Assembly (NCBI GenBank): GCA_963703935.1
Contig: CAVPGA010000009.1
Location: 179,528 to 243,527, forward strand
Length of the DNA: 64,000 bases
DNA from: an uncultured Bacteroidales bacterium
GTDB taxonomy: Bacteria; Bacteroidota; Bacteroidia; Bacteroidales; VadinHA17
Direction of reading: 5' to 3'
Under the pieces are notes generated by a model. That model worked only from the letters and a program-made list of their open reading frames with translations, was not told the DNA's origin and made no database searches. Position 1 is the stretch's first letter. Every line of letters begins with the position of its first letter. Both the position numbers and the translations under genes were made by a program. This document shows positions 3,441 through 51,640 of this stretch, in pieces.

Positions 3441-4685
3441 ATGACCAACCTTAGATTATTAAGCTTTATTCTCATATTGCTGATCACAGACTCCCTGTCT
3501 TTTACGCAAGCCCAAAACTGGCCATGCTGGCGCGGTCCAAACGGAGATGGAACCAGTACCGAAACCAATTTGCCGGTAAAGTGGGATTCAGTTACTAATG
3601 TGATATGGAAAATCCGGGTACCGGGTACAGGTTATTCTTCACCTATCGTCTGGAAAGACAGGATTTTCATGACGACAGCTTTTCCCGAAACACAGGAGAA
3701 AGTTCTGCTTTGCTATGATTCCAAAAGCGGCAATCTGTTATGGAGAAAAACCGTGCTCAAAAACTCATTCGAAAATAAACACGATAACAACAGTTTTGCT
3801 TCAGGCACACCCTCAACCGACGGCACACGGGTTTATGTGTCTTTTCTGGATGGTCAGGATATCGTGGTATGTGCATATGACTTTTCAGGAAAACAGGTCT
3901 GGCTGCAGCGACCCGGTACATTTTTAAGTCCGCATGGTTACAGTTGTTCGCCGGTGTTATTTGAAGATAAGGTAATAATTAACGGTGATAGCCAGGGGGA
4001 TTCTTTTGTCGCTGCATTAAGCAGAACAGATGGCCATATAATCTGGAAAGTTCCGCACGAGAAGCCATCACATAGTTTTAGCACTCCCATTTTCAGGAAA
4101 ATGGCCGGAAAAATGCAGATGATTTTTTGTGGTAACAGGGAAATTGCTTCCTATAATCCCGGCGATGGTTCGCGATACTGGTTTGTAAGTGGCCCTTCTG
4201 AGGACTTTTGTTCCAGTCCTGTTTATAATGAAAAGTCAGGATTAGTGCTTGTCAGCAGTGCATGGCCGCTTCGTAATCTGGTGGCAGTAAGACCCGACGG
4301 ACAGGGTGATGTTACGAAGAGTCATGTTGCATGGCAAACCAGAAAAGGAGCTTATTATGTACCATCGCCAGTTTGTACTGATGATTATCTTTTTACCACA
4401 ATGACCACAGGTGAGGTTCACTGCATTGAAGTAGCTACCGGTAATATTCTCTGGACAAAAAATCTTGGATTGCAGTATCCTTCTCCCGTTCTGGCTAACG
4501 GCCTGGTTTACATGCCCAATGATGAAGGTGTAATAACTGTTATTAAACCAGGTCCCAGATTCGAATATGTTGCAAGAAATTCTATCGGCGAAAGAATGAA
4601 TGCTTCGCCAGCCATAAGCAATGGGAAAATCTACCTCCGGGGCTTTCAGCACCTTTACTGCATAGGTACAGAAGACGTGAAATGA
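3441..4685 (+). CDS. Secreted PQQ-like beta-propeller repeat protein (BamB/YVTN-like fold)
   Basis: 414-aa ORF with a signal peptide, a WPCWRGPNGDG motif and repeated propeller-blade pattern. Confidence 0.8.
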   Translation: MTNLRLLSFILILLITDSLSFTQAQNWPCWRGPNGDGTSTETNLPVKWDSVTNVIWKIRVPGTGYSSPIVWKDRIFMTTAFPETQEKVLLCYDSKSGNLLWRKTVLKNSFENKHDNNSFASGTPSTDGTRVYVSFLDGQDIVVCAYDFSGKQVWLQRPGTFLSPHGYSCSPVLFEDKVIINGDSQGDSFVAALSRTDGHIIWKVPHEKPSHSFSTPIFRKMAGKMQMIFCGNREIASYNPGDGSRYWFVSGPSEDFCSSPVYNEKSGLVLVSSAWPLRNLVAVRPDGQGDVTKSHVAWQTRKGAYYVPSPVCTDDYLFTTMTTGEVHCIEVATGNILWTKNLGLQYPSPVLANGLVYMPNDEGVITVIKPGPRFEYVARNSIGERMNASPAISNGKIYLRGFQHLYCIGTEDVK

Positions 4686-4716
4686 TCAGGTGAGAGCTGC
4701 ACCGGATTTATCTATA

Positions 4717-4900
4717 AAATGATGGAACCGCTCCGCGGTTCAACATTGGGACTTAGACAATTTCCCTATAATGATGGAACCGCTCTGCGGTTCAGATTAA
4801 GCAGGATGCTACAAAAAGTAATTACCGCGGAGCGGTTTCATTATTCTAGTAACTTCAATAATACAAAATATGAAAACCGCGGAGCGGTTACATTATTCAA
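4717..4900. repeat. Four REP-like palindromic units (two forward, two inverted)
   Basis: The units are AATGATGGAACCGCTC(C/T)GCGGTTCA at 4717-4743 and 4769-4796, and their reverse complement (ACCGCGGAGCGGTT(T/A)CATTATTC(T/A)AGTAACT) at 4824-4853 and 4875-4905. Each contains a 5-7 bp stem around a 3-nt loop. Confidence 0.85.
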
Positions 4901-4905
4901 GTAAC

Positions 4906-4972
4906 TCTCCCAGGAGAGAGGGGGAAGCCCCACCCTCTCTCGCGGTAACTTTAGGGAGAGGCCTTGCTGAAT
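4906..4972. repeat. GA/CT-word composite hairpin
   Basis: CTCTCCCAGGAGAGAGGGGGAAGCCCCACCCTCTCTCGCGG...GGGAGAGG. GAGAG(G) words face CCTCTC words. Confidence 0.6.
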
Positions 4973-5030
4973 AGTTAATTACATCCGGATGTTTATATAA
5001 AATAATAACTTACGATAATACATAAGCGCC

Positions 5031-5155
5031 CTTTTAATACGTTTTTCTTTAAAATAAAATATGTCTTTTAATACGTATTTCTTTTTAATTTAATATGTCT
5101 TTTAATACGTATTTCTTTTGAATTTAATATGTCTTTTAATACGTCTTTCTTCTTA
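5031..5155. repeat. 34-bp tandem repeat, about 3.6 copies
   Basis: The unit CTTTTAATACGT(A/T)TTTCTTT..AAT.TAATATGT starts at 5031, 5065, 5099 and 5133. Confidence 0.9.
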
Positions 5156-5259
5156 GCGTCTTAGCGTCTTTGTGGCATTCTTTTTTTTGGCCACAAAGGC
5201 ACTAAGGCACAAAGTTTATCTGCGAAAACCTGCCTACCCTGCCTACCGGCAGGCAGGCG
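5152..5259. repeat. Two adjacent composite hairpins (CTTAGCG/CTTTGTG words, then CTGCCTAC words)
   Basis: CTTAGCGTCTTAGCGTCTTTGTGGC, a T-rich loop, then GGCCACAAAGGCACTAAGGCACAAAG (5152-5214). This is followed by CCTGCCTACCCTGCCTACCGGCAGGCAGG (5229-5259). Confidence 0.85.
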
Positions 5260-5331
5260 CAAAGCCTAGCACCCATGATGAATTATGGGAATAGCTATCG
5301 GGATAGGGGTGAACAGGTGTAAATCCTTTTA

Positions 5332-5421
5332 CTACGGAGTTCACTGAGTTTCACAGAGTAAAACACGGAGTTTTAAAACAGTGGAACTCCGTCTTTACTC
5401 CGTTTTAACTCTGTGGTTAAA
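5332..5421. repeat. Composite hairpin built from CACGGAG/CACAGAG words
   Basis: CTACGGAGTTCACTGAGTTTCACAGAGTAAAACACGGAGTT, a loop, then AACTCCGTCTTTACTCCGTTTTAACTCTGTGGTTAAA. Confidence 0.8.
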
Positions 5422-5534
5422 TAATTGTTACCTTCTGATAGTAAATAATTTATGTTAAAGAGTTATATAATAGTTCGCAGAGAAATCCCAGGAACGCAAA
5501 GTTTTTAGCAGGACGAGCCTGACGAGATCAGATT

Positions 5535-6026
5535 TCAGAACATTGGATGATCATTTGCGGATTTCTCAGGAACTTCCTGGATAACGTCCCAATGTTCAAC
5601 AATTTTGCCTTTCTCGATTCTGAAAATATCCAATACTGCCCTTACTTTAGGGCCCGATTTCCCTCTGATGTGTAAAAATACCAGATCACCATCAGCTGCT
5701 ACGTGCTGAAAATCGACTTTTTCCCTGGGTGCATCCTTAAACCAGACTTTTACTGCCTGAAGCAATGCCTCTTTTCCATCGGGAAGGGAAGGGTTGTGCT
5801 GAATGTATTTATCGCCAATGTATTTATTGATGGCATCAGGATTTTTATTTCCAAAGAGTTCCTGGTAAAATTCAACTACCATTTTTTTGTTGGACTCCTC
5901 CTGCCGGAGCTTTTCCTCACAATCGGACTGGCTCTGTCCACGAACGTAAGATGCAGACAGCAGGAAAAACAACGCAATCGAATTAGTTATTACTCTTTTC
6001 ATGTTTCCGGAATTAAAGTACTTCAT
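5535..6026 (-). CDS. Secreted SnoaL-like / NTF2-fold protein
   Basis: 163-aa ORF. The likelier start is the ATG at 6002 (MKRVITNS...), which is followed by a signal peptide. The YIQHNP...EHWDV pattern fits the SnoaL-like fold. Confidence 0.6.
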   Translation of the reverse strand: MKYFNSGNMKRVITNSIALFFLLSASYVRGQSQSDCEEKLRQEESNKKMVVEFYQELFGNKNPDAINKYIGDKYIQHNPSLPDGKEALLQAVKVWFKDAPREKVDFQHVAADGDLVFLHIRGKSGPKVRAVLDIFRIEKGKIVEHWDVIQEVPEKSANDHPMF

Positions 6027-12553: not shown

Positions 12554-12624
12554 CTTTAAGTCACTTTGTGAACCTTCGTAAACCCCTGCCTCCGCTAGGC
12601 AGGTTGAGTACTTTGTGGTTAAAC
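12554..12624. repeat. Short member of the CTTTGTG composite-hairpin family
   Basis: CTTTAAGTCACTTTGTGAACCTTCGTAAA, then CCTGCCTCCGCTAGGCAGG, then GAGTACTTTGTGGTTAAAC. It shares words with the elements at 18869 and 51511. Confidence 0.6.
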
Positions 12625-12755
12625 AGATTATGAAAGCCCGGAATGCTGTAAATTTGACCACTGCAATCATATTAAGTTTTTTAAACGTCTCTTAATTAAT
12701 AAGCGCCAGATGATAACCTGAATTTGATTAAATTAGTTCATAATTTTATTTCACC

Positions 12756-16448: not shown

Positions 16449-17350
16449 CTATAAGCCAAGAGATTTGATATAATCACGGTTTCGCTGTGCGCATACTTTC
16501 GGATTGCCCATTCCGGGGAGTACATCCTGTTCAACAACAATCCATCCTGAGTATTTCTGATTATTAAGTTCTTTAACAATTGAAGGGAAATCAACAGATC
16601 CTTTTCCAATTCACAGAAAACACCGTTACCAACCGATTTAAAGTAATCCCATTTCTCTGTCCTCGATTTTTCAGCCAGTATCCGGGTGACAATCTTTAAA
16701 ATGAATATGCCAGATGCGGTCCTGTTGCTTTTTCAGTACTCTCAAGAGGATCACCTCCTCCAAACATATAATGACCCATATCCAGGACCAGTCCTACAAG
16801 TGAAGGATCGGTCAATGAGAGCAATGTGTCGATTTCTCGCTGGTGTTTCAACATATCCTGCACAATGATGATGAAAAACTGTTCGCAATCCTGTCTGCGT
16901 TTTTACTTCACGTGCAACCAGATCTGCACCTTCAGCAAAGACTTTCCATTCATCATCTGTAAGTCCCATTGATGGCGTTACCCTTCCGGCATTCAGGGTG
17001 CGTTCCTTTATACTGCCATTTTCATCCGCAAGTACAATAAATGCATTTTGTAACCTGCATCTGCCATCAGCTTTGCAGTTTTTACTGCAGTTTCGGCACC
17101 GGCAGCATGCCTTTGAGCGGTCTTTCAGAAATACCGGAACAAAAGCGCCAACCATTGCAAGAGAGCGTTTATCGAGCTCTTTTTTTAATTCTGACGGAAC
17201 AGTGGGCATAAAACCCCAGTCGCCAAGTTCAGTACCCTGATAACCTGTTTCCCGGATTTCATTAAGTACCTGTTCAAAACCGGCAGCTTTGCCTTCAAGG
17301 TCAAATTCAAGTACTCCCCATGAACATGGGGCATTGGCTATTTTAATCAT
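16449..17350 (-). pseudogene. iolE: IolE-like inosose dehydratase / sugar-phosphate isomerase TIM barrel, multiply frameshifted
   Basis: The N-terminus reads MIKIANAPCSWGVLEFDLEG. I traced six frame changes by hand. One example is HAAGAETAVKTAKLMADAGYK, which is readable only in another frame. The C-terminus [34 protein letters not shown]...DYIKSLGL* is also in another frame. Confidence 0.7.
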
Positions 17351-17385
17351 ATTTATTAAGTTATTAAATATTTTTATTAAAATTA

Positions 17386-18860
17386 TTAAAATTTTCTTGT
17401 CCATTCTTCATGCCAGCGTTCAATGACGACTTTGGTCTGAGTATAAAACTCAACGGCATGCAACGATTGTCCATGAAGGTCTCCGAAGAAGCTCTCTTTC
17501 CAGCCACTGAAAGGGAAAAAAGCCATCGGAGCGGCAATACCAATGTTTATACCAATATTTCCTGCCATTGTATCGTGCCTGAATTTTCGGGCTGCAGCTC
17601 CGCTCGGGTAAAAATGCAGGCAGCATTGCCGTAACGGCTCTGGTTGATCAATTCTATCGCATCTTCAAGAGTATCGACATTGACCATGCATAAAACCGGT
17701 CCGAAATATTTCGGTTTTGTAGATTTCGCTTTCATTGCTTACATTTTGAATATTGTCGGACCAATAAAATTTCCGTCTTCACATCCTTCGTACTATTAGG
17801 TTTCGCCCATCAAGCAATAAATCTGCCCCATCATCGATCCCTTTTTGTATCAGTTTTTCAATCCGCTCCTTACTTTCTTTTGTAATAACCGGTCCCATTT
17901 CAATTCCGGGGTCATCCCGTTTCCGGTTTTTCTTGCTTTAGCGCTGTAGATAATTTTTTGATAAAACTTTCCGGAAATTTCCAGCTCTGCCGACGGTAAT
18001 AACAACTGAAGCTGCAAGGCACCTCTGTCCGGCACAACCAAAAGCACTGTCGGTAATTATTCTGACTGTAGTTTCATTATCGGCATCGGGCATAACAACA
18101 ACAGGATTTTTAGCTCCTCCCTGTGCCTGAACCCTTTTCCCATGAACGGCACCGGTCTGATAAATGTATTTTGCGACTGGAGAGGAACCGACAAAACTTA
18201 TTGCCTGAATAAGATGGATTTTCAAGAATTGCATCGACTGCTCTCTTTACCTCCATGAACCAGATTCAATACACCTTTTGGCAGGTTCAGATCCTCAAAT
18301 AGTTCAAAGATCCGTGTCATCGTCAGAGGCACTTTTTCCGAAGGTTTTACAATATATGTATTTCCGCAGGCAATGGCATAGGGCATAAACCAGAACGGAA
18401 TCATTATAGGAAAGTTGAAAGGTGAGACAGCTGCACCGACACCCAGCGGCTGCCGTATATAAAACTCATCGATGCCGGTTGCTATATCTTCGGAAAAATC
18501 ACTTTGCATGAGCTTCGGTATTCCGCATGCCACTTCAATATTTTCGATTGCACGTAACTATTTCGCCTTCGATTCAGCAAAGGTTTTACCACATTCCTGG
18601 TGCAGATTTCAGCAATTTCATCTGCATGCTCTTCCAGGATCTGCTTCATTTTAAAAAGGTATTGAATCCGTTGCGTTGCCGGAGTGTTCCTCCACGACCA
18701 CCATGCCTTTGAGCACTTTCTGCAGCGAATATATCATCTTTCGATCCTGCAGGAACTCTGGCAAGGATCTCCCCGTTTGCCGGATTAATTACATCCCGAT
18801 AGACCGGGTACTACTGTCACACCATTGTCCGTTGATATAGTTTTTTAAATTTTTTGTCAT
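17386..18860 (-). pseudogene. iolA: Methylmalonate-semialdehyde dehydrogenase (CoA-acylating), multiply frameshifted
   Basis: Fragments lie in different frames: MTKNLKNYINGQW..., [14 protein letters not shown]..., [45 protein letters not shown]...[19 protein letters not shown]..., [21 protein letters not shown] traced five frame changes in the first ~330 nt. Confidence 0.75.
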
Positions 18861-18868
18861 TTTTCTGA

Positions 18869-19046
18869 CTTTTAAATTCAGTACTTTGAGAATCCTTCGT
18901 GAATCCTTTGTGTAGCAATTCCCGAAAAGCTGGTCTTGACTAATTTACAGAGTCAATTACTTGGCTCTTTGTGGTAAAAAGAAATTAACCACAAAGGGTC
19001 ACAAAGGCTGTCACGAAGTAACACAAAGGAATACAATAAATTAAGC
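18869..19046. repeat. CTTTGTG composite-hairpin element, copy A (carries a ~53-nt internal insertion)
   Basis: It shares both arms with 51511-51640, including an identical 27-nt block, CCACAAAGGGTCACAAAGGCTGTCAC(G/C)AAG. It sits between iolD and iolA. Confidence 0.9.
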
Positions 19047-19088
19047 AATATTTATGAATTAAACAGGCTAAGTTATTGTTTTCTGTAT

Positions 19089-20952
19089 TCATAAAAAGTA
19101 CCTCTGTTTCTTTTTATTTTCAATATAGTTCTGATAGGCTTTTTTGACAGTTTCAATTTCAGAAACTTCTGCAACTGCAACTTCCCACCAGGCATAACCC
19201 GGAACACCTTTGTACAGGTCTGTTTCAATTGTGATCACAGTTGTGGTTGTATGCTTCTTTGCTTCTTTCAGGGCATTTTTCAGGGAGTTAATATCAGTGT
19301 GCTTCAATTACATGCGCTCCAAGGCTGCGGGCATTTTGTGCAAAATTTACGGGAAGGTTCTCACCTGTTAAGTGTCCGGTTTTTTCATCCCGGTAACGGT
19401 ATTTCGTTCCGAAACGCTGTGATCCGATCGATTGGGACAATGCCGCCGATACTTCCGAATCCGTTGTTATTCAGCAGGATGATAGTGACTTTGATTCCTT
19501 CCTGGATCGCTGTGACAATTTCATTATTCATCATCAGGTAATTTCCATCACCAACCATCACAAATATCTCACGGTCGGGACAGGCCATTTTTGCACCGAT
19601 TCCTGCTGCACATTCATATCCCATTGTTGAATATCCGTATTCAAGGTGAAATCCTTTCGGATCGAGTGGTCCTCCAGAGCTTATGAAGGTCGCCCGGCAG
19701 ACTTCCTGCAGCGCAAAGAACAACATCGCGGGATCCTGCAAATTCATTTACAGCTCCGACAACTTCAGCCTGGGTGACCGGTAGTGAACCGGAGACTTTA
19801 TAGAATTCGCTTACCTTATCATCCCAGGCTTTATTTAACTGGGCTGCATTCTTGCTGTATTCATCCGAGACCCTGTAATCGCAAGTAGATCCAGGAGTTC
19901 TTCAAGACATACCCTTGCATCGGAAGTAACAGGTAATGCACAATGTTTATGTGAATCAAATTCAGCAATATTTATATTGATGAATTTCACATCCGGATTC
20001 TGAAAAGCTGTTTTTGATGCAGTTGTAAAATCGCTGTAACGTGGTTCCGATATCCGATTACCAGATCTGCTTCTGTGATAATTCATTTGCTCCCGGAGTT
20101 CCTGTTAGCACCAACTGCTCCAAGGTTTGAAGGGTGGTTATAAGGCAGGGATCCCTTCCCGGCAAAGGTTTCTGCAACCGGAATTCCGGTCTGTTCAACC
20201 AATTTTTTCAATATCTCTGTAGCCTCGCTGTAGATGACTCCGCCGCCGGCAATAATGACCGGTTTTTTTGAAGTTTTATCATCTCAGCGCCTCTCTCAGG
20301 AGATAAGATCGGGTCTTGGTCTTGCAATTCTCCATATTCTTTTCCGGAATAGTTCCTCCGGGAAAGTCAAACGCTTCTGCCTGTACATCCTGGGGAAGAG
20401 CCAAGTGTGACAGCACCTGTATCGGATGGAGAAGTGAGGACTCTCATTACTTCGGGCAGGGAGGTGATTAATTGTTCGGGCCTGCTGATCCTGTCCCAGT
20501 ATTTTGAAACAGGTTTAAAACAATCATTTACCGAAATATCCTGGGAAGAAGGCGATTCAAGTTGCTGCAGGACAGGTGCTACATTCCGGCGTGCAAAAAT
20601 ATCTCCGGGTATCAAGAGCACAGGCAGCCTGTTTATTGTTGCACAGGCTGCACCGGTTATCATGTTGGTGGCACCGGGTCCGATCGATGAGATGCAGGCA
20701 AATGTTCCCAGCCGGTTTTTCATTTTGGCATATGCAATGGCAATATGCACCGAGGCCTGTTCATTCCTGGTCATAATAAACCGGAAATCGGGATTTTCCA
20801 TTAAACCCTCACCCACGCCTGCGACAATACCATGACCGAATATTCCCAGACATCCTGCAAAGAAAAGGATTTTCAATTCCATCTCGTTCAACATACTGGT
20901 TCTTCAGAAACCTGATTATTGCCTGACCGACAGTTAATCGATTAGTTTTCAT
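19089..20952 (-). pseudogene. iolD: ThDP-dependent 3D-(3,5/4)-trihydroxycyclohexane-1,2-dione acylhydrolase, multiply frameshifted
   Basis: The N-terminus reads MKTNRLTVGQAIIRFLKNQYVERDGIE and then shifts into FFAGCLGIFGHG...NEQASVHIAIAYAK. Further fragments are at 19835-20086, 19385-19747 (MVGDGNYLMMNNE, ThDP motif) and 19089-19307. Confidence 0.75.
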
Positions 20953-20988
20953 GAATTTATAGTTCTTATTTGATCAGAATCAGTATTT

Positions 20989-21999
20989 CTAAAACCCTCC
21001 GTTTGCTTCAATAAAAGTCAAAGCTTCATCGAGGGTCGGATTAAAATTTGAGCATCCTGGTTTGGTAACCAGTATTGCCCCGCAGGCATTGCCCATGCGG
21101 CAGCTTTTATACCAATCCCAGCCGTTCAGATATCCATAAATAAATCCGCTGGCAAAAGCATCACCGGCTCCCAGTACATTCACCACTCTACTGGAAAACC
21201 CGGAACATCAATCACTGGCCGTCTTTCAAATACACAGTTGATCCCTTTGCTCCCCGTTTTACAACCAGTGCCTCAATTCCAAGCTTCATGATGATTTGAT
21301 TGAAGCATCTATATCTCCCTGTATTTCAGGAGCAGAGATCTGCTGATTTCTGATCTTAATCTTAGCAGGATCACTGACATCGTTGCCAGGATCTCCTCCT
21401 CCGTGCCCAGAGGCTATTGTGCAATTCCTCAGATAGGCCCGGGCGGTGATTCCGAACGCACGGGCATCGTGCCACTGATCGGCCCGGAAATCAAGATCAA
21501 TTAATATCGGTACATTGTTTTTTACCGCTTCTTCAGCTGCAAAAAAGCCTGCTGATCTTGACGGTTCTACATTCAGGGCGGTGGCGGAAATTTCGAACAG
21601 ACGAAAGGATCCGATATTAGCATTTATTACATCATCAATATTTACTTTTGAATCGGCACAGTTTTCACGATAGTAGACGAGTGGAAAATTATCGGGCGGC
21701 TGTATGCCCAGCACAACGGCGCTGGTACGCGATCCGGGTTTTCTTGGAATAAACTTTGTTTCAACACCTTCCTTATTCAGAAAATTGAGGAGAAAATCAC
21801 CAACCTGGTCCTGACCGATACCTGTCAATAAGGCTGATTTAAGGCCCAGCCGTTTTGTTCCAACTGCGATATTCAGTGGAGAACCGCCCACATAAGCATT
21901 AAATGCCTTAATATCTACGAAGGCGGCGCCTATATTGGCGGAATAAAGATCAATAGAGGATCGTCCATAGGTAAGTACATCGTACTCTTTGTTTGTCAT
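20989..21999 (-). pseudogene. iolC: PfkB-family 5-dehydro-2-deoxygluconokinase, frameshifted
   Basis: The N-terminal ~200 aa are readable (MTNKEYDVLTYGRSSIDLYS...GGSPLNIAVG). The C-terminal PfkB motif VNVLGAGDAFASGFIYG is in a different frame (20989-21186). Confidence 0.7.
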
Positions 22000-22017
22000 A
22001 ATTAATATCCTGGTATT

Positions 22018-22897
22018 TTATTTGTCGTTCATTTCAATCGTTACCAGGGGAATTCTCGGATCCATTCCCTTCCATGTGCCATAAATCCACTTATGATCGG
22101 GATCGTCGGTGCTGGCCAGGCTCTGGTCGCTGCCGGCCAGATAATTAAGATAATAGACATTGTAGCCATGACCTGCTATCACCGGGTGGTAACCTTCCGG
22201 AATCAGGACTACATCGTTATTATGTGCCTCTGCGATCTCATCCAGGCTCCTGTCGTCAGTGTAAACCTTTTGTAAAGCAAACCCCTGAGGTTTGTCAATT
22301 TTATAAAAGTAGATCTCTTCAAGGTCTGCTTCCAGGAGTTTGCCTGTTCCAGGGTCAATTTTCCGGCTATCATGCTTATGAGCCGGGAAGGAGCTCCAGT
22401 TCCCCGAAGGAGTGTAGACTTCAACACATATCACCCGTTGCAGTGTGATCCGGGGCGGCAGGATCCGGTTAATCTGACGACTGGCGTTATCACCTCCCCT
22501 GTATTCAATTCCCATCCAACAACATCGGAAGGTGTTATGAATGTCGCCGGTGTATATTGTTCGAGCTTTGCACCAACCGCAGGCAATGTCTATCAATTCG
22601 CGCGGCAGAAATTTCAAATTTGGTATTTTGCGGAAGGTATAATGCATGAGGCAGACCACTGGAAAACATTTTTTCTTCCGTTCGATGTTTTCCAGTTCTG
22701 ATGAATTGGCAGAAAAATTTCCCCTAGTAAAACAAAAAGATATTCATTCTTTCCCGTATCACCCATCCTATTTTACCGGGTTGATTATTCGGGCGTTGAA
22801 GTTGAGATGGTCCCAACCGGCTTCCCCGGTGGGTTGGTAGATCTTCTTTTCCGGAGTTGATTCTGGATAGGAGAGGGCATTTTTTATCTTTGTTCAT
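22018..22897 (-). pseudogene. iolB: 5-Deoxy-glucuronate isomerase, frameshifted in the N-terminal third
   Basis: The C-terminal part is intact (EVYTPSGNWSSFPAHKHD...YHPVIAGHGYNVYYLNYLAG). The N-terminus from the ATG at 22897 is readable only by switching frames (…TGEAGWDHLNFNARII…). Confidence 0.7.
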
Positions 22898-22910
22898 GGA
22901 TCATTATTTA

Positions 22911-23821
22911 TTATAATATGCATTTGCACTTACCGGCACAAATAATTCCAGTGCATCCATGTATTCTTTACCAGGAACTACCAAGTCAAACTTTTCGGGT
23001 GGATCCCGGAAAAATTCCCGGTGTATCCTTGTCCATATCATTCTCATGTCAGTGGCAATATTTATTTTGCAGACACCGTATTTTATAGCGGTAAAAGTTC
23101 CTTATCATCCAGTCCTTTTGCATCTTTTTAATTTTACCTCCGGCCTCGTTAATCCGGTTAACCTCATCAACTGGTACAGCAGATGCGCCATGTAGAACAA
23201 GCGGAAACCCCGGGAGTTACTTCTGAATCTCAGCGAGAATTGTAAGCTGTAGCCTTTTGCCTCCGGAAAATTTATATGCGACCGTGACTTGTTCCTACAG
23301 CCACTGCAAGACTATCGCATCCGGTAGCTTTTTATAAATTCATCCGCCTGTTAGGATCGGTATAATGCGGCGTTCTTTCTCTTCCACCGACCGATTGTCT
23401 TCAACTCCGCTCATACAACCTAATTCAGCTTCTACCGCAATTCCTTGGCATGGGCCTTTTTGCAATCTCACTTGTGATGCGGATATTTTCATCAAATGTT
23501 TATGTGATGCATCAATCATTACTGAACGTTATAATCCTGATTCTATTGCGTTCATGCAATGATCATAATGTACCGTGGTCGAGATGCACCGTAAAAGTGA
23601 CTTCGGGATAAATTTTTTCAGCGGCTGCAATTCAAATTTTCGAGCATATCGGGGTGAAGATAATTACGCGCCACCGGAGTAAGCTGAATTATCACAGGGG
23701 CATTTTACTTTTCAGGCTCCCCTGAAAACACCATGGATCTGTTCTCCATTGAACACATTAAATGCTCCGATACCAAATTTACCGTAGGCCTGAAATATAA
23801 TTTCCGGATAGGGACTCTCAT
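22911..23821 (-). pseudogene. Class II fructose-bisphosphate-type aldolase (IolJ-like), heavily frameshifted
   Basis: The fragments AYGKFGIGAFNVFN, TFTVHLDHG, LAVAVGTSHG and LVLHGASAVP-like segments appear across three frames. No ORF longer than 80 aa remains. Confidence 0.6.
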
Positions 23822-23877
23822 TTTTATATTTGAATCTATATTTACCAACACATTTATGAAAATAATTTCTAACGCTA

Positions 23878-25694
23878 TTATTGATTTACCAGAAGAAATA
23901 ATATAAGTGCTGCAAATATTCCGCAAATACCTATCGCAGCGATATTAAATGTCATTGAGGTTTTGAATAGCCCTTTTTCTATTAAAATAGCATTGATATC
24001 CATTTTCTTTAGCATGTTATTCAGGATCATGATAAGACCAATCAAAATGAAGCCTGCTACCGGAACATAGATAGCACTCCAGGGCAAAATTTTTTAGAGG
24101 AATCACGAAAAATGAAGCTAATGATCCCTATAAGTAATGCGATTGAAACCATCTTTATCCCGGTGTTTGCAGTTTTCCTGTCTCATTTATAATCGGTCAT
24201 AATTGTTGTTTCTGAATTATGCCTTATCAGCAGACTTATTCCGATCATTACAAAAGCCAAAATTATAAATACATAACCAATCCGGAGGATAAAAGGCATT
24301 CCCGGATTTAATAATTTGAAAGAAATTCCCAATGGAATTGTAAGCAAAGCTGTCCATAATGCTGCTTTTGATGTAGCCTGCTGCCAGAATAAGTCCGCAG
24401 AAGAATATCAGAAATTCTCCCGGATAAATAAATCCTGTATATTCCTGGATATACTGGTATGCCTGATCGAGGGATCGTAACTGTGGCGCATACATGTTGA
24501 GATGACGAGGGCGGTGAAGGCTACTATCATACCGGTTCTGACCATCTGTTTTTCGGTAGCTTTTTTATTGAGAAAACCTTTATAAATATCAATAGTAAAA
24601 ATCGTTGATACACTATTGACTATTGAGCTGAGTGCAGAACTGCAGCAGCAACAATTGCAGCAAATGAGAGTCCTCTGATTCCGATAGGTACAATATTGCT
24701 TATAAGCCATGGATATGCCTCGTCTGATTTTCCAGTTTAACTCCCAGGGCATATACTGCGATTCCGGGTATAACAACCAGAAGGGGAACCAGGAGTTTTA
24801 GGTAGCCTGTGAAGGCTACCCCAAGTTGGGCTTCTTTTAAACTTTTACCTGCTAGTCCTCGCTGGATAATAAACTGGTTGAATCCCCAGAAACTAAGATT
24901 AGTCAGCCACATTGATCCCAATATTACTCCTAGCCCGGCAGATCGGAAAATGCATCTTTTTTACCGCCGGTTCCATTTGGAATCAAGAGAATCCCTTTTT
25001 CAATGACCATATGGAATTTCTCCGGAGCTTTATGTACAAGTTCGGCAAAACCGGCAAGGATTCCATTTCCACCACTAGTGCATTGAGTGCAAAAGAGGTG
25101 GTAACGAACCACCGAAAATTAATACAGCTACATTAATGACATCAGTCCATGCAACGGCCTTCATGCCGCCCCAGAGAGAGTATATTGCTGAAAAGAAAGA
25201 AAATCCGATAATTCCATAAATCAGAGGAATCCCTATTATCCGTTCCATCGCCAGCGCTCCCAGATAGATGACAGCAGTCATATTTACGAAAATATAGACC
25301 AGTATCCAGAATACTGCAAAACAGGTGCTCACTCGTTTATCATACCGTTGCGAAAGGAACTGAGGCATTGTAAAGATCCCCTTTTTAATGAAGACCGGAA
25401 GAAAATACTTGGCAACAAAAATCAGGACAATGGCAGCAATCCATTCGTAAGCAGCTATTGCCAGTCCAATTGCATATCCGGAACCGGACATGGCAATGAA
25501 ATGTTCTGCGGAAATATTGGCAGCCAGAAGTGTTGAGCCAATTGCCCACCAGGGAAGTGAACGGCCCGCCAGAAAATAGTCCTGGGAAGTTCTTTGCTCC
25601 CCTTTTTTTTTCGCGAGACCCATAATCCGACAAAAACTATGATTGGTGCATATCCTACGAAAACGATCCAGTCGATAGAAGTAAATTCTTTCAT
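23878..25694 (-). pseudogene. Sodium:solute symporter (SSS family, SGLT / myo-inositol-type), heavily frameshifted
   Basis: The N-terminus MKEFTSIDWIVFVGY... shifts inside a lysine (poly-T) run into QDYFLAGRSLPWWAIGSTLLAANISAEHF... Further fragments are FWGFNQFIIQR (24700-24921) and a C-terminal TM segment (23878-24087). Confidence 0.7.
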
Positions 25695-25886
25695 TCAGTA
25701 AGATTTCTAATTATTTTATCTGTTTAAACTTAGTAATGATTTTTCTGCAAATCTATTATTTTTACAGGTTTAACAAAATACATGAACAAATCATACTTAA
25801 TTTTACGAAGCTGATAAAACTTGAAGACGTTGCAGGAGTAGTAAATATTTGTCCTACTGCTTTTTCCAGGAACATCACTCTGAAGC

Positions 25887-28629
25887 TCAACCAATCAACT
25901 CTTTGTGATTGGCAAGGTCATTATCAGGTACAATTACTGCTACCCATTGTTCGTCAATTGACTCTGTTTTTCCATGCCATTCGAGTGTTATTTCCCTCCC
26001 TGATTTTAAATTTATCTGTTTTGAAGATCTTTTAATTGTCAGGTTGCTGGTTCTGATAGCGAAATTGTGACTTCCGTTTCCCTGAATTTTTGCTGTAATA
26101 GTAACCTCACCATTATCTGAATCCACTTTTGAAACCTCAAAGTTAAATGCGTTTTCAGGCCGGAGGTCCGGATTATATGTTCCTTGAGTTTTTCCAAGGA
26201 CGGCAGTCATCCCTTTGATAGCTCCCACAACTCCGATCCACTGGCTTACAGGATGTACCCAGACCTCCTTATAAGTCCAGGTATTTTGAACCGGCCAATA
26301 TGGTACATCACTTTCTGCACGAGTCTGGATACCAACTGGAAGAGCACCTGCAATATCACCTGAGGAGGGTGTATATAAAGGTGGAAAGTCGTATCCTTCT
26401 CCATACATTGTGCTCTGTGAAAATGGATTGCGACCTACTATCCATTCTAACTGGAGGAGGGCAAGTTTCGCCGATTCCGGGTCAGAACGAAGACGGGACG
26501 CGTTACAGAGAGATTGCGCCTGTGGTAAAATAGTCCCGAAATGTCCTCTGTAATCCATCCATACAGGGAAAATGCGAAGGTAATATCCTTTGCCTAAATG
26601 GATTCCGTTTAAAACCTGCAGCCGGAACGACTCCTGCCTGCTTTCCGGTACCTGAAGGTAATCTTTGTCCTGTATATATGGACGAAGGCAGAACCCCATA
26701 GGGTTCAGTATATCTGGCAATTGTTTTCAGGTATTCTGAATGCAATGCCACCGCAGAATACCATTTCATCCATTCGGGACGATCGGGAAACGCCTCACAG
26801 AGTTTAGTGAGTGCAGCGATAATTTCGTTCTCCCTGCCGTTATGACAATAATGAAGGATATTTCTTTTTGCCGGGCCGGTGTAAAAGAAACCGGTTAATG
26901 GCACGTCCATTTTAGTGAGTTTCCGTTGCTGCGATTCAATTAAAATTTTCGACAGTTCTATTGCTTTGCCTGCATAGCGGTTATCTCCCGTGGCATACCA
27001 CAGCTCTACCGAAGCTAATATTCCGGCAGAAGCTGCCTCATGCAAAATGTTACCTGAATCGAATGATACGCTCCAAACTGCATTTGAAGCCGTATCTTCA
27101 TCAAAAACAAGCTTTTCAACAGCGAATTGCCAATCGGCTTTAGCCATTTTAAGTGAATAATTCGCCAGACGCTGATCTCTTTCTTTCAAAACTCTGTACG
27201 CTATAGCCTCAGCAGAGGAAGCTATAAAATTGGATTTAGATGTATTTTTCGCTATTGAGGTAACATCGTCAGAATCGCCTATAATTCCATTCGTTCTTCG
27301 ACTATTTACGGATCCTTCATTGCGAAATCCATCGCCAAAGCTTGTTTTCAGAATCCAGTCGAGACCCCATTGCGCTTCTTCAAGGAGTCGTTCAAAAAGA
27401 CGGGAGTCATCTCCCCTTTTGTGCATCTGTTCTGCAAAGCTGAACATTGCATACACAGCCTCACCTGTGTTGCGGAGCCCCTGTGTAAAATCACCGGCAT
27501 CATGCCACCCGCCATTGATGACCAGGCTTTTATTACCATGAACACAGGTCCAATCGCGATGACAAGTGCCGTGTGCACCGGGAATAGAAGTGCCACATCG
27601 CTCAACATAAAAAAAATTCAATGCCTTCCAGATTGTTTGCTCCCAGATGTCAGGACCGATACGAAAGGGCTGGGTTACTATTTTGCCTGCATCTATAAAG
27701 TATGTGCCACTTTGTTGAATCTCAGAAAAATCAAGGAGCTGAAATGTTCCCAAATGTGATGTAATGGTCTGGATTGGCTTTCTTAGTACTGTTTTGCCAG
27801 ATTCCTTATCAACTATTCTGAATTCAGTGCTTTTCAGATCATTTGCTATAGCACTTTTCGGAGATTCTGATTGGTAACCTGTATGACTAAAAGATATTCT
27901 TCCCTGCCAGACCGGCCATCCCTCAATGTAATCAGGTACTACTTTTTCAAGTTCCAGATCATCAAAATAAAAAACTAAAGTATCGGTAGTTTCAGGCTCA
28001 TTTCCGGACATAACAGAAGATATTTCAAACTTTGATATTTTGTCCCGTGCAACATTACCAATTTCCCAGACTATATGATTCCATTCGTGATTACGTAAGG
28101 TAATAGTATTCTCACCCTCCTGTCCGAAGAGTGCCGGCAACTTTTCCAAACCTTCATTAAAGAGCCTGAGCTCAAGCCAGTTTTGATAAGCCCCGGGATT
28201 ATCAGGATATATCCATAGGGATATTCTGTTGAAATTACTCCAATCCTCGTTTTTGAAAATACACCATATCCCTGCATTCCCCCAGCCCCGACCGCTTTTG
28301 GGACCAGGTCCATCTAATTTTGCAGGGAACTTTACCAGAAGAGAATTACTGCCGGAATGAGGTTTTTCATTGGAGAGTCTCATTTCAGCAACCATGGATT
28401 TTGATTCAGCTATTTTAGTCGTAATCCTTGAATCTACAAGTGAAATAGCTCCAGTCGTAAAAGGTACCCAATGACCTGTGTTTTCCATATCATCCAGAAT
28501 CCTGCTTTCCAGTACTTCCTTATTAAGCCACCTGTACAATGCCGAATTCTGAACATTTACCTGCATTGGCTCCTGTCCTCTCGTTGTTAAACAAACTGCC
28601 AACATTCCAATAATTATTCTTAATGTCAT
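25887..28629 (-). pseudogene. GH9 glycoside hydrolase with N-terminal accessory domains, one frameshift
   Basis: The likely start is at 28629 (MTLRIIIGMLAVCL, signal peptide). It carries the GH9 motif NGGWHDAGD. ORFs 26503-28689 and 25887-26720 overlap and join at ...ARYTEPYGVLPSSIY / IQDKDYLQVPES. The shift is near a TATATA tract at 26670-26695. Confidence 0.7.
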
Positions 28630-44337: not shown

Positions 44338-44418
44338 TCAGTATCAAGAAGCACCGGGTTAAGTCCCAGGCAACAATATTAGTCAGCCATTTATACTTTA
44401 AATTGCATAACTGGCTTG

Positions 44419-45681
44419 ATGCCAGATTCTTGCGTCTTTGCTATCAACATATTAAAATTAAGTGCTGTGAAACAGGATTTAGCTATTAACGGTGGACCGA
44501 GAACCGTCAATAAAAGTTTTCCCTGGCCAATATTTGATGGAACAGAAATTAAAGCAATCACCGATATCGTAAACAGCGGTCAGTGGGGTAATCCCGACTG
44601 CGGAGATATAGTAAAGACATTTGAGGACGAGTTTGCTGCTTTCTGCGGAACAAAATACGCTCTTGCATGTGTCAATGGATCGGTGGCATTAAGGCTCGCT
44701 CTGATAGCCTGCAATGTACGTCCAGGAGATGAGGTTATAATTACACCTTATACCTTTATTGCAACCGCATCGATTGTTTTGGAAGCCAATTGTGTCCCGG
44801 TATTCGTTGACATTGATCCACGAACTTACAATATTGATCCCGACGAAATTAAGAAAGCAATTACTGAAAGGACCAGAGCGATTATCCCCGTCCATTTCGC
44901 AGGACAAGCCTGCGAAATGGACAGAATAATGGACATCGCAAAGAATAACAACCTCAGGGTGATTGAGGATGCATGCCACGGGCACGGAGCAGAATATAAA
45001 GGAAAAAAACTCGGAAGCATGGGAGATGCAGGATGTTTCAGTTTTCAATCGTCAAAAAATCTTACAAGCGGTGAAGGCGGAATGGTGATTACAAATGATG
45101 ATGAGCTTTATGATATGATGAACTCCCTCCGGAATGTCGGCCGGGTTAAGGGTGGGCAATGGTACGAACATCATTATCTGGGATGCAACTACAGGATCAC
45201 TCAACTTCAGGTGGCATTGTTACTAACTCAGTTCAAGAGACTTAGGGATCAAACCCAACATCGACACGAAAACGGCACATATCTTAATTCCCTTCTTAGC
45301 AGGATAGATGGAATAAAACCACTAATCCGGGGATTGGGTGAGACTTTACACAGCTATCATATTTATATTTTCAAGTATGACAAATCTAAGTTCAATAATC
45401 TGTCAAAACCTGAATTTGCAAAAATGCTTGCTGCAGAAGGTGTTCCCTGCTTTATGGGTTATCCTCAGCCATTATATAAACAGCCGCTTTTCCAGAAGAA
45501 AAATTTCATGTGCTATGCCATACCAGAGGAAGTGGATTATACGAATGTCTGCTGTCCGGTTGCTGAAAAGGCGTGTTACGAAGATGCAGTCTGGATAATG
45601 CAGAATGCCATGCTGGGGACGAAAGAGGATATGGAGAAATTTGCAGAGGCGATTGTCAAGATCCAAACAGCAGTAAGTTAA
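44419..45681 (+). CDS. DegT/DnrJ/EryC1/StrS-family PLP aminotransferase
   Basis: It has LAINGGP near the N-terminus and a PLP-lysine region (FSFQSSKNLTSGEGG). The start is uncertain: TTG 44416, ATG 44419, or GTG 44467 just before VKQDLAINGG. There is no signal peptide. Confidence 0.85.
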   Translation: MPDSCVFAINILKLSAVKQDLAINGGPRTVNKSFPWPIFDGTEIKAITDIVNSGQWGNPDCGDIVKTFEDEFAAFCGTKYALACVNGSVALRLALIACNVRPGDEVIITPYTFIATASIVLEANCVPVFVDIDPRTYNIDPDEIKKAITERTRAIIPVHFAGQACEMDRIMDIAKNNNLRVIEDACHGHGAEYKGKKLGSMGDAGCFSFQSSKNLTSGEGGMVITNDDELYDMMNSLRNVGRVKGGQWYEHHYLGCNYRITQLQVALLLTQFKRLRDQTQHRHENGTYLNSLLSRIDGIKPLIRGLGETLHSYHIYIFKYDKSKFNNLSKPEFAKMLAAEGVPCFMGYPQPLYKQPLFQKKNFMCYAIPEEVDYTNVCCPVAEKACYEDAVWIMQNAMLGTKEDMEKFAEAIVKIQTAVS

Positions 45682-48010: not shown

Positions 48011-48586
48011 ATGAAAATCAGATTATCATTTATCGTCATTACACTATTTGCATTATCAGAACTGAATGGCCAGATTTCTGATAATTGTGTTGCCAATGTA
48101 ATACTTTCCGGATACTCGGAAAGGGCATACACATCAGATCCTGTAACTGATCAACAGCTTGATTTGATACTGAAATGCGGTATCAAGGCTCCCAGCGGAA
48201 GGAACAACCAGCCATGGAGATTTACTGTGGTTAATGACTTAGCCTCCATGAAAGAGATCATCAATGATGTAGTTCCCGGAAATGTCCTGGTAATTGTTTC
48301 AGGGATGGAATCAGAAGGCGGAGGCACTCCTGATCTTGATTGCGGACTGGCTACGGAGAGTATGTTCGTAGCAGCACATAGTCTTGGGCTTGGGGCACGG
48401 ATATACGGCGGTCCCGCCGGAAACATCAACTCAAATAAAGAACTTTTTCAGATCCCATCAGGGTTTAAAGCTGTGGTTGTCCTGCGAATCGGCAATGTTG
48501 ATAAAAGTGTGGATGCCGTGTCAGCTGCAACACCGAGAAAGAAGGCGGAGGAGATCATAAATTTCAAACAACTCAGAAACAATTAG
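48011..48586 (+). CDS. Nitroreductase family protein with signal peptide
   Basis: 191-aa ORF with the motif RAYTSDPVTDQQLDLILKCGIKAPSGRNNQPWRFTVV. Confidence 0.8.
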   Translation: MKIRLSFIVITLFALSELNGQISDNCVANVILSGYSERAYTSDPVTDQQLDLILKCGIKAPSGRNNQPWRFTVVNDLASMKEIINDVVPGNVLVIVSGMESEGGGTPDLDCGLATESMFVAAHSLGLGARIYGGPAGNINSNKELFQIPSGFKAVVVLRIGNVDKSVDAVSAATPRKKAEEIINFKQLRNN

Positions 48587-48642
48587 TGTTGAGGAGGTAA
48601 AACCAGGCCACGGGATCAATATCGGTGTAGGGAAGGGATAAT

Positions 48643-48690
48643 GAGAGTGAGCGCGGGACTGCAAGCGACTTCACTCTCGTTTCTTTTTCC
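48643..48690 (+). terminator. Weak candidate intrinsic terminator after the nitroreductase gene
   Basis: An 8-bp stem (GAGAGTGA at 48643-48650, TCACTCTC at 48671-48678) is followed by GTTTCTTTTT. The 20-nt loop is long for a terminator. Confidence 0.25.
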
Positions 48691-48744
48691 AAGGGTGATT
48701 TCCTGATTTACCGGACAATTGCAATGCTGGAGACTGCTCTCAAG

Positions 48745-48901
48745 CTGGTTTCTGGTTGCTGGTTTCTGGTTGCTGGTTGCTGGTTAAATTGTTAACTAAG
48801 AGGGTATTATATTGTCTTAATTTTAATACGTCATGAAAAATCAGAAGTTTTATAATGCTCACTTTTTATCAACTAGCAACAAGTAGCCAGTAACCAGCAA
48901 C
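48745..48901. repeat. Composite hairpin built from CTGGTT(G/T) words with a ~85-nt loop
   Basis: The left arm is CTGGTTTCTGGTTGCTGGTTTCTGGTTGCTGGTTGCTGGTT (48745-48785). The right arm is AACTAGCAACAAGTAGCCAGTAACCAGCAAC (48871-48901). The loop contains TTTTAATACGTC. Confidence 0.85.
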
Positions 48902-48906
48902 TTAGA

Positions 48907-51510: not shown

Positions 51511-51640
51511 CTTTTAAAATTCAAGTACTTTGTGAATCCTTCGTGTAATCCTTTGTGTGACTTTGTGGTAAGAAGAATTTAACCACAAAGGGTCACAAAG
51601 GCTGTCACCAAGGTATCACAAAGGAATACAATAAATTCAA
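51511..51640. repeat. CTTTGTG composite-hairpin element, copy B
   Basis: CTTTTAAAATTCAAGTACTTTGTGAATCCTTCGTGTAATCCTTTGTGTGACTTTGTGGTAAGAAGAATTTAACCACAAAGGGTCACAAAGGCTGTCACCAAGGTATCACAAAGGAATACAATAAATTCAA. The arms are complementary word by word. Confidence 0.9.

Follow-up and report, generated by a model that had tools for sequence, protein, structure and literature searches.

The intergenic spacer described here lies at positions 4686-5534 of a 64 000-nucleotide stretch of DNA from an uncultured Bacteroidales bacterium, the whole of which is referred to below as the window. The spacer extends for 849 nt, stop to stop, between two convergent genes, a PQQ-type beta-propeller gene on its left (3441-4685, plus strand) and a SnoaL-like gene on its right (5535-6026, minus strand). 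Gene calls throughout are crude open reading frame (ORF) calls, and on these our own ranking placed the spacer as the second-longest apparent gene-free gap; the larger gaps, of 851 nt after position 18533 and 1748 nt after position 22659, both fall within a frameshifted stretch at 16.7-26 kb. Our study suggests, with a probability of about 0.6, that the spacer is a nest in which elements resembling MITEs (miniature inverted-repeat transposable elements) and repetitive extragenic palindromic (REP) sequences have accumulated, nested and decayed, and not a dedicated device. The original prediction, made from the sequence of this stretch, had listed six repeat features between the two genes. Every one was found where it had been placed, although two descriptions need correction: a GA/CT-rich hairpin is not an array of short words, and hairpins said to be unrelated in sequence are not all so.

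The folding energies that the prediction had called for were calculated against dinucleotide shuffles, and the spacer as a whole gave a z-score of -13.05 (20 shuffles), the REP-like cluster on its left -8.9 and two of the hairpins on its right -7.8 and -5.0. Arrays of at least three C[AG]CN[AG]AG heptamers, or of their complement, occur six times in the window and never in 200 first-order Markov simulations, which bears out the excess over chance that had been expected. Two coarser measures were of little use: counting ungapped hairpins in the window failed to discriminate (there were 7, and shuffles gave 0-5), and a sliding minimum-free-energy scan was uninformative, being dominated by G+C-rich coding DNA. 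No match in the window reached an Rfam gathering score, and a search of positions 4600-5600 at an E-value threshold returned noise only. Neither of the two marks of a structured RNA family, a match to a curated model and compensatory base changes, was found.

The stable part of the spacer (4715-4976) would represent a cluster of REP-type, terminator-like stem-loops together with the GA/CT hairpin. Repeat and fold analysis resolved the cluster (4715-4913) into four 52-nt units, two forward and then two inverted, with palindromic cores at 4725-4741, 4777-4793, 4824-4836 and 4875-4889. In each unit a G+C stem of 7 bp encloses a 3-nt loop (GAACCGC TCC/TCT GCGGTTC) and is followed by a T-rich tail, and the forward/inverted arrangement folds into long hairpins like those of REPINs. 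Across both strands the cluster held four terminator-like matches, compared to 1.0 +/- 1.0 in shuffles. These units are short, imperfect, G+C-rich palindromes of the size of a REP (20-40 nt), and the foot of the palindrome, where a REP has a 5' GT[AG]G or CGTC tag, reads ATGATG/GAACC. No further copy of the unit was found in the 64-kb window outside the cluster, nor in 189 other loci except in the orthologous cluster of a second strain; membership of the REP class is therefore unproven, a verdict that is provisional at this scope.

The GA/CT-rich hairpin (4906-4972) pairs GGAGAGAGGGGG with CCACCCTCTCTC, with an outer pairing of CTCTCC and GGGAGAG, and is a low-complexity stem rather than the word array it had been taken for. 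It folds weakly better than shuffles (z = -2.2 as RNA, -1.8 as DNA), and its sole Rfam signal, to whalefall-1, is non-significant at 15 bits where the gathering score is 37. Two direct copies of a 22-nt repeat, at 4702-4723 and 4985-5006 (82 % identity; CCGGAT.TTTAT.TATAAAAT.AT), bracket the block formed by the REP-type cluster and this hairpin; the repeat could be due to chance, or be the trace of an insertion.

The remaining part of the spacer (4977-5534) would consist of a minisatellite, a compact element built of C[AG]CN[AG]AG words, a GGCAGG mini-palindrome and two abutting, truncated CACNGAG elements. The minisatellite (5031-5151) was identified by TRF as an A+T-rich array of 3.6 copies of a 34-bp unit, with 91 % matches. 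Its unit is made up of two related 13-mers, TTTAATAYGTNTT, and the array adjoins the left arm of the hairpin at 5152-5214. No relative of it was found in any fetched locus, and it is private to the strain of the window.

The hairpin at 5152-5214 is a compact member of the CRCNAAG family, with three heptamer words in each arm at a period of 8 nt (CTTAGCG-T-CTTAGCG-T-CTTTGTGG facing CCACAAAGG-CACTAAGG-CACAAAG). Its fold z-score of -7.8 applies to RNA and is -4.8 as DNA. It has the same core words as the canonical copies of the family described below, positions 5160-5215 match the canonical-element profile (E = 9e-5), and a similar compact variant occurs at positions 1983-2070 of locus L045. Next to it, a single ATCTGCG-type word (5215-5228, plus strand) has its complement, TTCGCAGAG, at 5474-5486 (inverted repeat I10), and it is possible, at low confidence, that a third word hairpin has been split here and that these two are its arms. 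An intact ATCTGCG-word hairpin is found at L026 6665-6740, beside the same kinds of element.

The GGCAGG mini-palindrome (5229-5259) has two copies of CCTGCCTAC facing GGCAGGCAGG and a fold z-score of -2.6. Positions 5236-5262 are identical at 27 of 27 bases to L026 6424-6450, and the same mini-palindrome sits within the left arm of word elements at 12585-12603 of the window and at L082 2795-2814. As a side observation, the spacer at L026 6400-6760 is similarly crowded, with the GGCAGG mini-palindrome, a canonical CACAAAG element and the ATCTGCG-word hairpin side by side.

Finally, the stretch at 5318-5421 (minus strand) was aligned both to tandem elements at L049 1686-1920 and to a canonical CACAGAG element at L039 885-981. 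Read on the minus strand, it comprises the right-arm array of one truncated element (5420-5386), followed by the left arm (5370-5333) and loop (5332-5321) of the next. The CACGGAG hairpin that had been proposed at 5332-5421, with its fold z-score of -5.0, would then most simply be chance pairing between neighbouring arms of two abutting CACNGAG-word elements. Hairpins 5152-5214 and 5332-5421 share one word family, C[AG]CN[AG]AG, in place of being unrelated. None of the hairpins at 5152-5214, 5229-5259 and 5332-5421 has a T-run after its stem.

Comparison with a second strain divided the spacer into parts that are kept and parts that turn over. Locus L001 is a metagenome contig from ENA that encodes an identical SnoaL protein and shares 12 kb with the window at 96-99 % identity. 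Alignment of the two spacers showed the REP-like cluster and the GA/CT hairpin to be conserved, at 98.9 % identity for this half and with the hairpin itself identical, although the L001 cluster has five units against four in the window, the extra one being a 52-nt forward unit. The 558 nt at 4977-5534, which hold the minisatellite and all three word hairpins, are entirely absent from L001. About 290 nt of unrelated sequence stand there instead and include a palindromic element of another kind (AGATTGCTTCGTCG..CTCCTCGCAATGAC / GTCATTGCGAGGAG..CGACGAAGCAATCT, L001 6630-6760), for which neither the window nor any of the other 189 loci has a match. The comparison between related genomes that had been advised therefore retained one half of the spacer and found the other replaced. 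Within the 12 kb common to the two strains, turnover amounts to the extra 52-nt unit, the exchange of 558 nt for about 290 nt and an insertion of about 166 nt. At 80 loci with orthologues of the PQQ-type gene (71-85 % amino-acid identity), other genes lie downstream and neither a SnoaL gene nor any such cluster was found, so that the spacer could not be traced beyond the species, and its content is specific to the species and even to the strain.

Genes were split in both assemblies, and single-base details may therefore be unreliable. At 16751-26000 of the window many genes, among them those of inositol catabolism, an aldehyde dehydrogenase and a sodium:solute symporter, fall apart into short ORFs, and at L001 1-5094 some genes are split that are intact in the window, with the reverse also seen. 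This suggests indel errors of long-read assemblies, or real pseudogenes.

The words found in the spacer belong to a conserved and dispersed family, contrary to the view that sequence is not conserved among such hairpins. Three further members lie in the window. Copy A (51514-51640) is a canonical CACNAAG element with four words in each arm and a 12-nt loop (nhmmer E = 1e-25 over 51520-51632), and can form a long interrupted hairpin (z = -7.0 as DNA). Copy B (18871-19050; E = 1e-17 over 18962-19037) is a canonical element whose left arm carries a 48-nt insertion at 18917-18965; this insertion has a small inverted repeat of its own (TTGACTAATTTACAGAGTCAA). The third is a half element consisting of a left arm only (12554-12627, plus strand; E = 4e-6), in which a CCTGCC..GGCAGG mini-palindrome lies between the words at the same position as in L082 2795-2814. 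Copies A and B are related sequences of about 125 nt in which a core of CTTTGTGGT, loop and ACCACAAAGG is followed by further CACNAAG words.

An exact-pattern scan (CTTTGTGG-N6-22-CCACAAAGG-NN-CACAAAG) of one genome per GTDB species matched at least 106 loci, where by our own calculation about 0.04 would be expected by chance (24 specified bases in 596 Gb). Among the matches listed, nearly all came from uncultured Bacteroidales metagenome-assembled genomes (MAGs) of fens, peat, soils and sediments, and two from Ignavibacteria. The nhmmer profile was built from 105 canonical elements, and genomes other than that of the window were examined as 8-kb pieces. In these loci 21 non-anchor copies were counted in 759 kb (about 1 per 36 kb), compared to about 1 per 16 kb in the window. 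The two-word pattern had no match in 2.9 million viral contigs; a core-only hairpin pattern had three chance matches there, none of them word-built.

The architecture of the family is strict. In about 80 of the 104 complete elements, each arm carries the core word and exactly three others, and the spacers after successive heptamers are 3, 5 and 3 nt long, so that the period is 10-12-10. Words of canonical copies are about 95-100 % conserved; invariance is 90-100 % at six positions of the heptamer, and the central base is variable (A far more often than T or G, with C the rarest). At this base, 104 of 244 word pairs are Watson-Crick matched, against 120 expected from base frequencies; there is therefore no compensation between the arms, and no covariation was seen at the variable positions of the elements. 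The bases of the spacers between words pair less than expected as well (0.14-0.28, against 0.3-0.46). It is the words and the distances between them, and not the pairing, on which selection or faithful copying acts. The commonest loop class, of 19 nt, has a conserved, asymmetric consensus, TaAAannTAAatcATTgAA.

Many copies are framed by an outer inverted repeat of 12-19 bp, GRGGCTGTYNNAAAAGT...ACTTTTNNRACAGCCYC, or, in the sub-family of the window, TTAACTTTTAAAATTCAT...ATGAATTAAACAGGTTAA, and the word-armed elements as a whole measure 100-175 nt. The outer repeat GGCTGTTGAAAAAGT may resemble ISL3-type ends, a tentative lead. On inspection, several known motifs were dropped because they did not fit the words consistently: DnaA boxes (TGTGGTTAA against TGTGGATAA), a site for integration host factor (IHF) within the loop, TAnnTTTG as the -7 promoter box of Bacteroidetes, and sequences like Chi. 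Nesting was recurrent: mini-palindromes lie inside element arms, and tandem partial elements occur. At L035, L039, L044 and L068 (one MAG) and at L072, other small G+C palindromes (TCCCGAGTACTCGGGA; CCCCTAGAGGGG) occupy the same position in the left arm of CACNAAG elements, which suggests that this arm has a preferred insertion point for mini-palindromes.

The positions of the elements relative to gene ends were checked, as had been advised, for 95 elements with an ORF on both sides; none of the 95 lies inside an ORF, and there was no bias towards 3' ends. Elements lay in 17 convergent, 25 divergent and 53 tandem gaps, compared to 62, 86 and 216 for all gaps in the same loci, and their orientation relative to flanking genes, assigned by spacer similarity, was 28 against 25. 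Copies 86-95 % identical to copy A were found at non-orthologous sites, beside unrelated genes, in other species-level MAGs. No gene family, such as a transposase, recurs beside the elements in the 106 loci, at 8 kb each. This unbiased intergenic placement, the lack of a recurrent gene and the 86-95 % identical copies at non-orthologous sites indicate the behaviour of a dispersed, non-autonomous repeat, not that of a terminator or a gene-specific regulator.

The same design, a short direct-repeat arm facing an arm of complements, recurs in this lineage with different words, for example CACAAAG, GCTGGTT and GGAAGAC, as the original prediction had anticipated. A de novo search that paired short-period arrays with complementary arrays, supplemented by pattern searches, recovered CTCTGTG/CACAGAG, CACGGAG, CGCAAAG, GGAAGAC, ATTTCGG, ATCTGCG, CTCAGCG and GCTGGTT. 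The GCTGGTT-armed element of the window (48731-48907, about 175 nt) has six (G/T)CTGGTT words (48744-48785) facing four AACNAGN words (about 48871-48900), the two arms being some 85 nt apart. An 89 %-identical copy of about 166 nt, with four left words against six, is present at L001 9450-9616, and the window has the corresponding empty site at 2350-2385, which reads GAGATAATTAGTAAAG. The filled site of L001 reads GAGA-TAATTA-(ACTCAAGTTGC...GCAACTTAGGT)-TAATTA-GTAAAG, so that the inserted element has inverted termini (ACTCAAGTTGC/GCAACTTAGGT) and is flanked by a 6-bp target duplication, TAATTA. The GCTGGTT-armed element is demonstrably mobile in the same species.

At L104 5510-5730, 12 (G/C)CTGGTT words face 17 AACAAGC words with one mismatch per heptamer. 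Unequal word numbers of this kind (6 against 4; 12 against 17) fit independent slippage in each arm, and the common generating mechanism that had been proposed is borne out to the extent that unit numbers differ between copies and between strains, which points to slippage as one process. Long contiguous heptamer arrays also occur at L082 7445-7553 and L079 3560-3640 (GGGAGCG arrays). Adjoining the GCTGGTT-armed element of the window, after a gene at 48011-48586, is a strong, classical terminator-like stem-loop with a T-run (48611-48700; -38.8 kcal/mol in a 100-nt frame). Elsewhere in the window, at 44890-44922 and inside the ORF 44416-45681, a stem of 14 bp that pairs perfectly around a 5-nt loop was noted (GTCCATTTCGCAGG acaag CCTGCGAAATGGAC).

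Taken together, these observations are best explained if the word-armed elements are non-autonomous, MITE- or REP-like dispersed DNA; small non-coding palindromic repeats of this sort would be typical of the lineage. The heptamer words would be repeated recognition motifs in both inverted termini, replication slippage would multiply the words within each arm, and a trans-acting protein would read them. Elements would land, or persist, only in intergenic DNA, regardless of the orientation of the genes. A long spacer between convergent gene ends tolerates such elements, and they would therefore build up, nest in one another and decay at such a place. That the CACNAAG family is itself mobile is suggested by its dispersal, its cross-species identity, its nesting and its turnover between strains, and the word elements probably have no host function.

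Several points weigh against this explanation. No target duplication was evident beside the outer inverted repeats of CACNAAG elements, no empty site came to light for this family, and neither a transposase nor a RAYT recurs next to the elements. Long-range pairs of word arms, which would mark a parent insertion sequence with matching ends, were not found in the 8-kb windows, and no transposase or RAYT (Y1) was present among the 25 Pfam families that match most of the 52 ORFs of the window (38 further matched families lay outside this check). Both family members in the spacer are atypical, the one at 5152-5214 being compact and that at 5318-5421 truncated and in tandem, and their assignment to the family, for which the basis is their words, one alignment and a profile match at E = 9e-5, is probable rather than certain. 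The REP-type units, for which no second locus was found, are unproven as a dispersed repeat, and a local terminator role for them is plausible. Lastly, a host function would explain just as well why words, spacing and loop are strictly conserved in many species.

A more ambitious and distinctly tentative extension is that these elements form an undescribed superfamily of 'heptamer-word' palindromic elements in environmental Bacteroidales, with CAC-N-AAG as its main type. The four strictly conserved words in each arm, their helical spacing and their unpaired spacers would then serve as an array of sites to which a dedicated protein binds sequence-specifically, either a new transposase or a domesticated partner resembling that of REP/RAYT systems, and the word families would be co-evolving pairs of element and protein.

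Among the alternatives, an origin in place survives best, doubtful though it is as a full account. A short inverted repeat would grow by slippage in each arm, possibly with hairpin-templated strand switching, and neither a mobile element nor a trans-acting factor would be required. Changes in unit number (4 or 5 for the REP-type units, 6 or 4 for the heptamers, and 12 facing 17 in L104) are in keeping with this, as are the use of one design with many unrelated words and the abutment of the minisatellite on the hairpin at 5152; roughly one mismatch between arms per heptamer is also what would be expected if arms expand separately from an imperfect founder. However, CACNAAG elements are fixed at 4+4 words with fixed spacing and a conserved loop and are not variable arrays, and the words of this main family are not private to each locus. 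Template switching predicts complementary spacers, whereas the spacers are not complementary, and neither the 86-95 % identical copies at non-orthologous sites in different species nor the insertion of a heptamer-armed element with target duplication fits growth in place. Such growth is a more likely contributor than sole cause.

Somewhat less probable is a role in RNA, in which the hairpins would terminate transcription from both directions or stabilize the 3' ends of both convergent genes, their clustering reflecting selection against read-through and antisense transcription. The setting between two gene 3' ends and the very strong folding z-scores are consistent with this, and it applies best to the REP-type cluster, with its G+C stems, T-rich tails and excess of terminator-like matches over shuffles, and with its retention, like that of the GA/CT hairpin, between strains. 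The word hairpins do not follow this pattern, being without T-runs and without compensatory changes, with spacers that avoid pairing. Their family occurs in divergent (5'/5') spacers as often as chance predicts and without orientation bias, the entire word-hairpin half is missing from a conspecific strain, and 80 PQQ-orthologue loci have no such cluster. A common structural function as terminator or stabilizer, which the original prediction had offered, is accordingly not favoured.

It is improbable that the word arrays serve to bind a protein of the host, with a regulatory or nucleoid-structuring role, and are maintained by selection on the organism. Heptamers that are conserved while their spacers vary, a conserved, asymmetric loop and the absence of the family from 2.9 million viral contigs would suit such a protein, and a spacing of 10-12 bp, about one helical turn, would place the words on one face of the duplex. 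Yet the position of the elements bears no relation to promoters or to gene ends, truncated, nested and interrupted copies occur, spacer content differs between conspecific strains and there is no known candidate protein. An artefact of error-prone long-read assembly is very improbable: split genes in both assemblies do suggest indel errors and 4977-5534 is present in only one of the two, but the conserved half recurs at 98.9 % identity in an independent assembly, parts of the variable half are corroborated by the 27/27 match in L026 and by word families in about 100 independent MAGs, and indel noise does not create structured palindromes of 60-100 nt.

REPs, MITEs, ERIC and BOX elements are well studied in Proteobacteria and Firmicutes; to our knowledge, small intergenic repeats have hardly been described for environmental Bacteroidales. 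The word-element family is a recognizable, high-copy family, with about one copy in every 16-36 kb of the DNA analysed, and is apparently widespread and undescribed in uncultured Bacteroidales. Words that are conserved across many species-level genomes where pairing is not would imply a sequence-specific reader, and the target-duplicated insertion of a heptamer-armed element offers a handle for finding the mobilizing enzyme. For annotation, such elements make long, structured spacers that vary between strains 96-99 % identical and may be mistaken for terminators or regulatory RNAs. For the spacer itself, the main value of this study lies in viewing it as an accumulation of repeat elements and not as a purpose-built structure.

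Of the known systems, Rho-independent terminators resemble these hairpins in being stem-loops that follow gene ends, and the REP-type units have the G+C stem and T-rich tail of an intrinsic terminator. The word hairpins differ in having no T-runs, in lying equally in divergent spacers, with no fixed placement after gene 3' ends across the family (17/25/53, as in the background, and 28 against 25 for orientation), and in being dispensable between strains.

Short tandemly repeated repetitive (STRR) sequences are heptamer tandem repeats of cyanobacteria. TAACTGA direct repeats have been described in Beggiatoaceae, Cyanobacteria and a few Bacteroidetes (PMC4679880). The elements reported here share with both their seven-base words, repeated 2-40 times, their intergenic location and their patchy distribution among lineages, and contiguous heptamer arrays like those of STRR sequences are present in these MAGs too (L104, L079). 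Those systems are direct arrays, mostly oriented relative to start codons, whereas here arrays face their complements, and the words of the main family are spaced and have no orientation relative to genes. Head-to-tail heptamers lacking spacers were seen only in other elements, as at 48744-48785 and in L104, the main family having spacers of 2-5 nt.

The REP, BIME and REPIN elements mobilized by RAYT (TnpA_REP) proteins (PMC6006769; PMC3116915; PMC3733652) are closer in form to the left part of the spacer. The Bacteroidetes-specific RAYT subclass 2.6 has 'atypical' REPs, such as GCTAG-CGCGAGCG-TCC-CGCTCGTG, which are also without a GT[AG]G/CGTC tag (PMC6006769). The units of the window are likewise short, extragenic, imperfect palindromes clustered in alternating orientation, and share with subclass 2.6 a 7-bp G+C stem and a 3-nt TCC/TCT loop. 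They differ from typical REPs and REPINs in lacking a GTAG or CGTC tag and in having no other copy in 64 kb or 189 loci, and no RAYT was seen among the 25 Pfam families checked in the window. The word-armed elements, at 100-175 nt and with four heptamers per arm, are far longer than REPs. In the literature searched, we found no description of these words or of this architecture, and the supplement listing subclass-2.6 REPs has no entry of the CACAAAG type (PMC6006769).

There is also a likeness to MITEs. Bacterial MITEs and long palindromic intergenic repeats include ERIC/IRU, Correia, RUP and BOX. The 'BrickBuilt' MITE of P. gingivalis contains an internal minisatellite (PMC4596501), and such repeats have been reviewed (PMC3184786). 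Like MITEs, the word elements are non-coding, below 300 nt (100-200 nt), multi-copy and strictly intergenic, have inverted termini that form a long hairpin, are modular with a variable internal unit number and are dispersed at non-orthologous sites. Insertion polymorphism, with an empty and a filled site and target duplication (TAATTA), was observed for the GCTGGTT-armed element. They differ from MITEs in that no parent insertion sequence or transposase was found beside them in the 106 loci (8-kb windows), and in that each arm repeats a single conserved heptamer every 10-12 nt, between spacers that are not complementary. The object is of a known type, an intergenic palindromic repeat or MITE, and the spacer is an ordinary consequence of such elements; what sets it apart is the presence of four conserved heptamers per arm at helical spacing, with unpaired spacers, and of several word families that share one design in environmental Bacteroidales.

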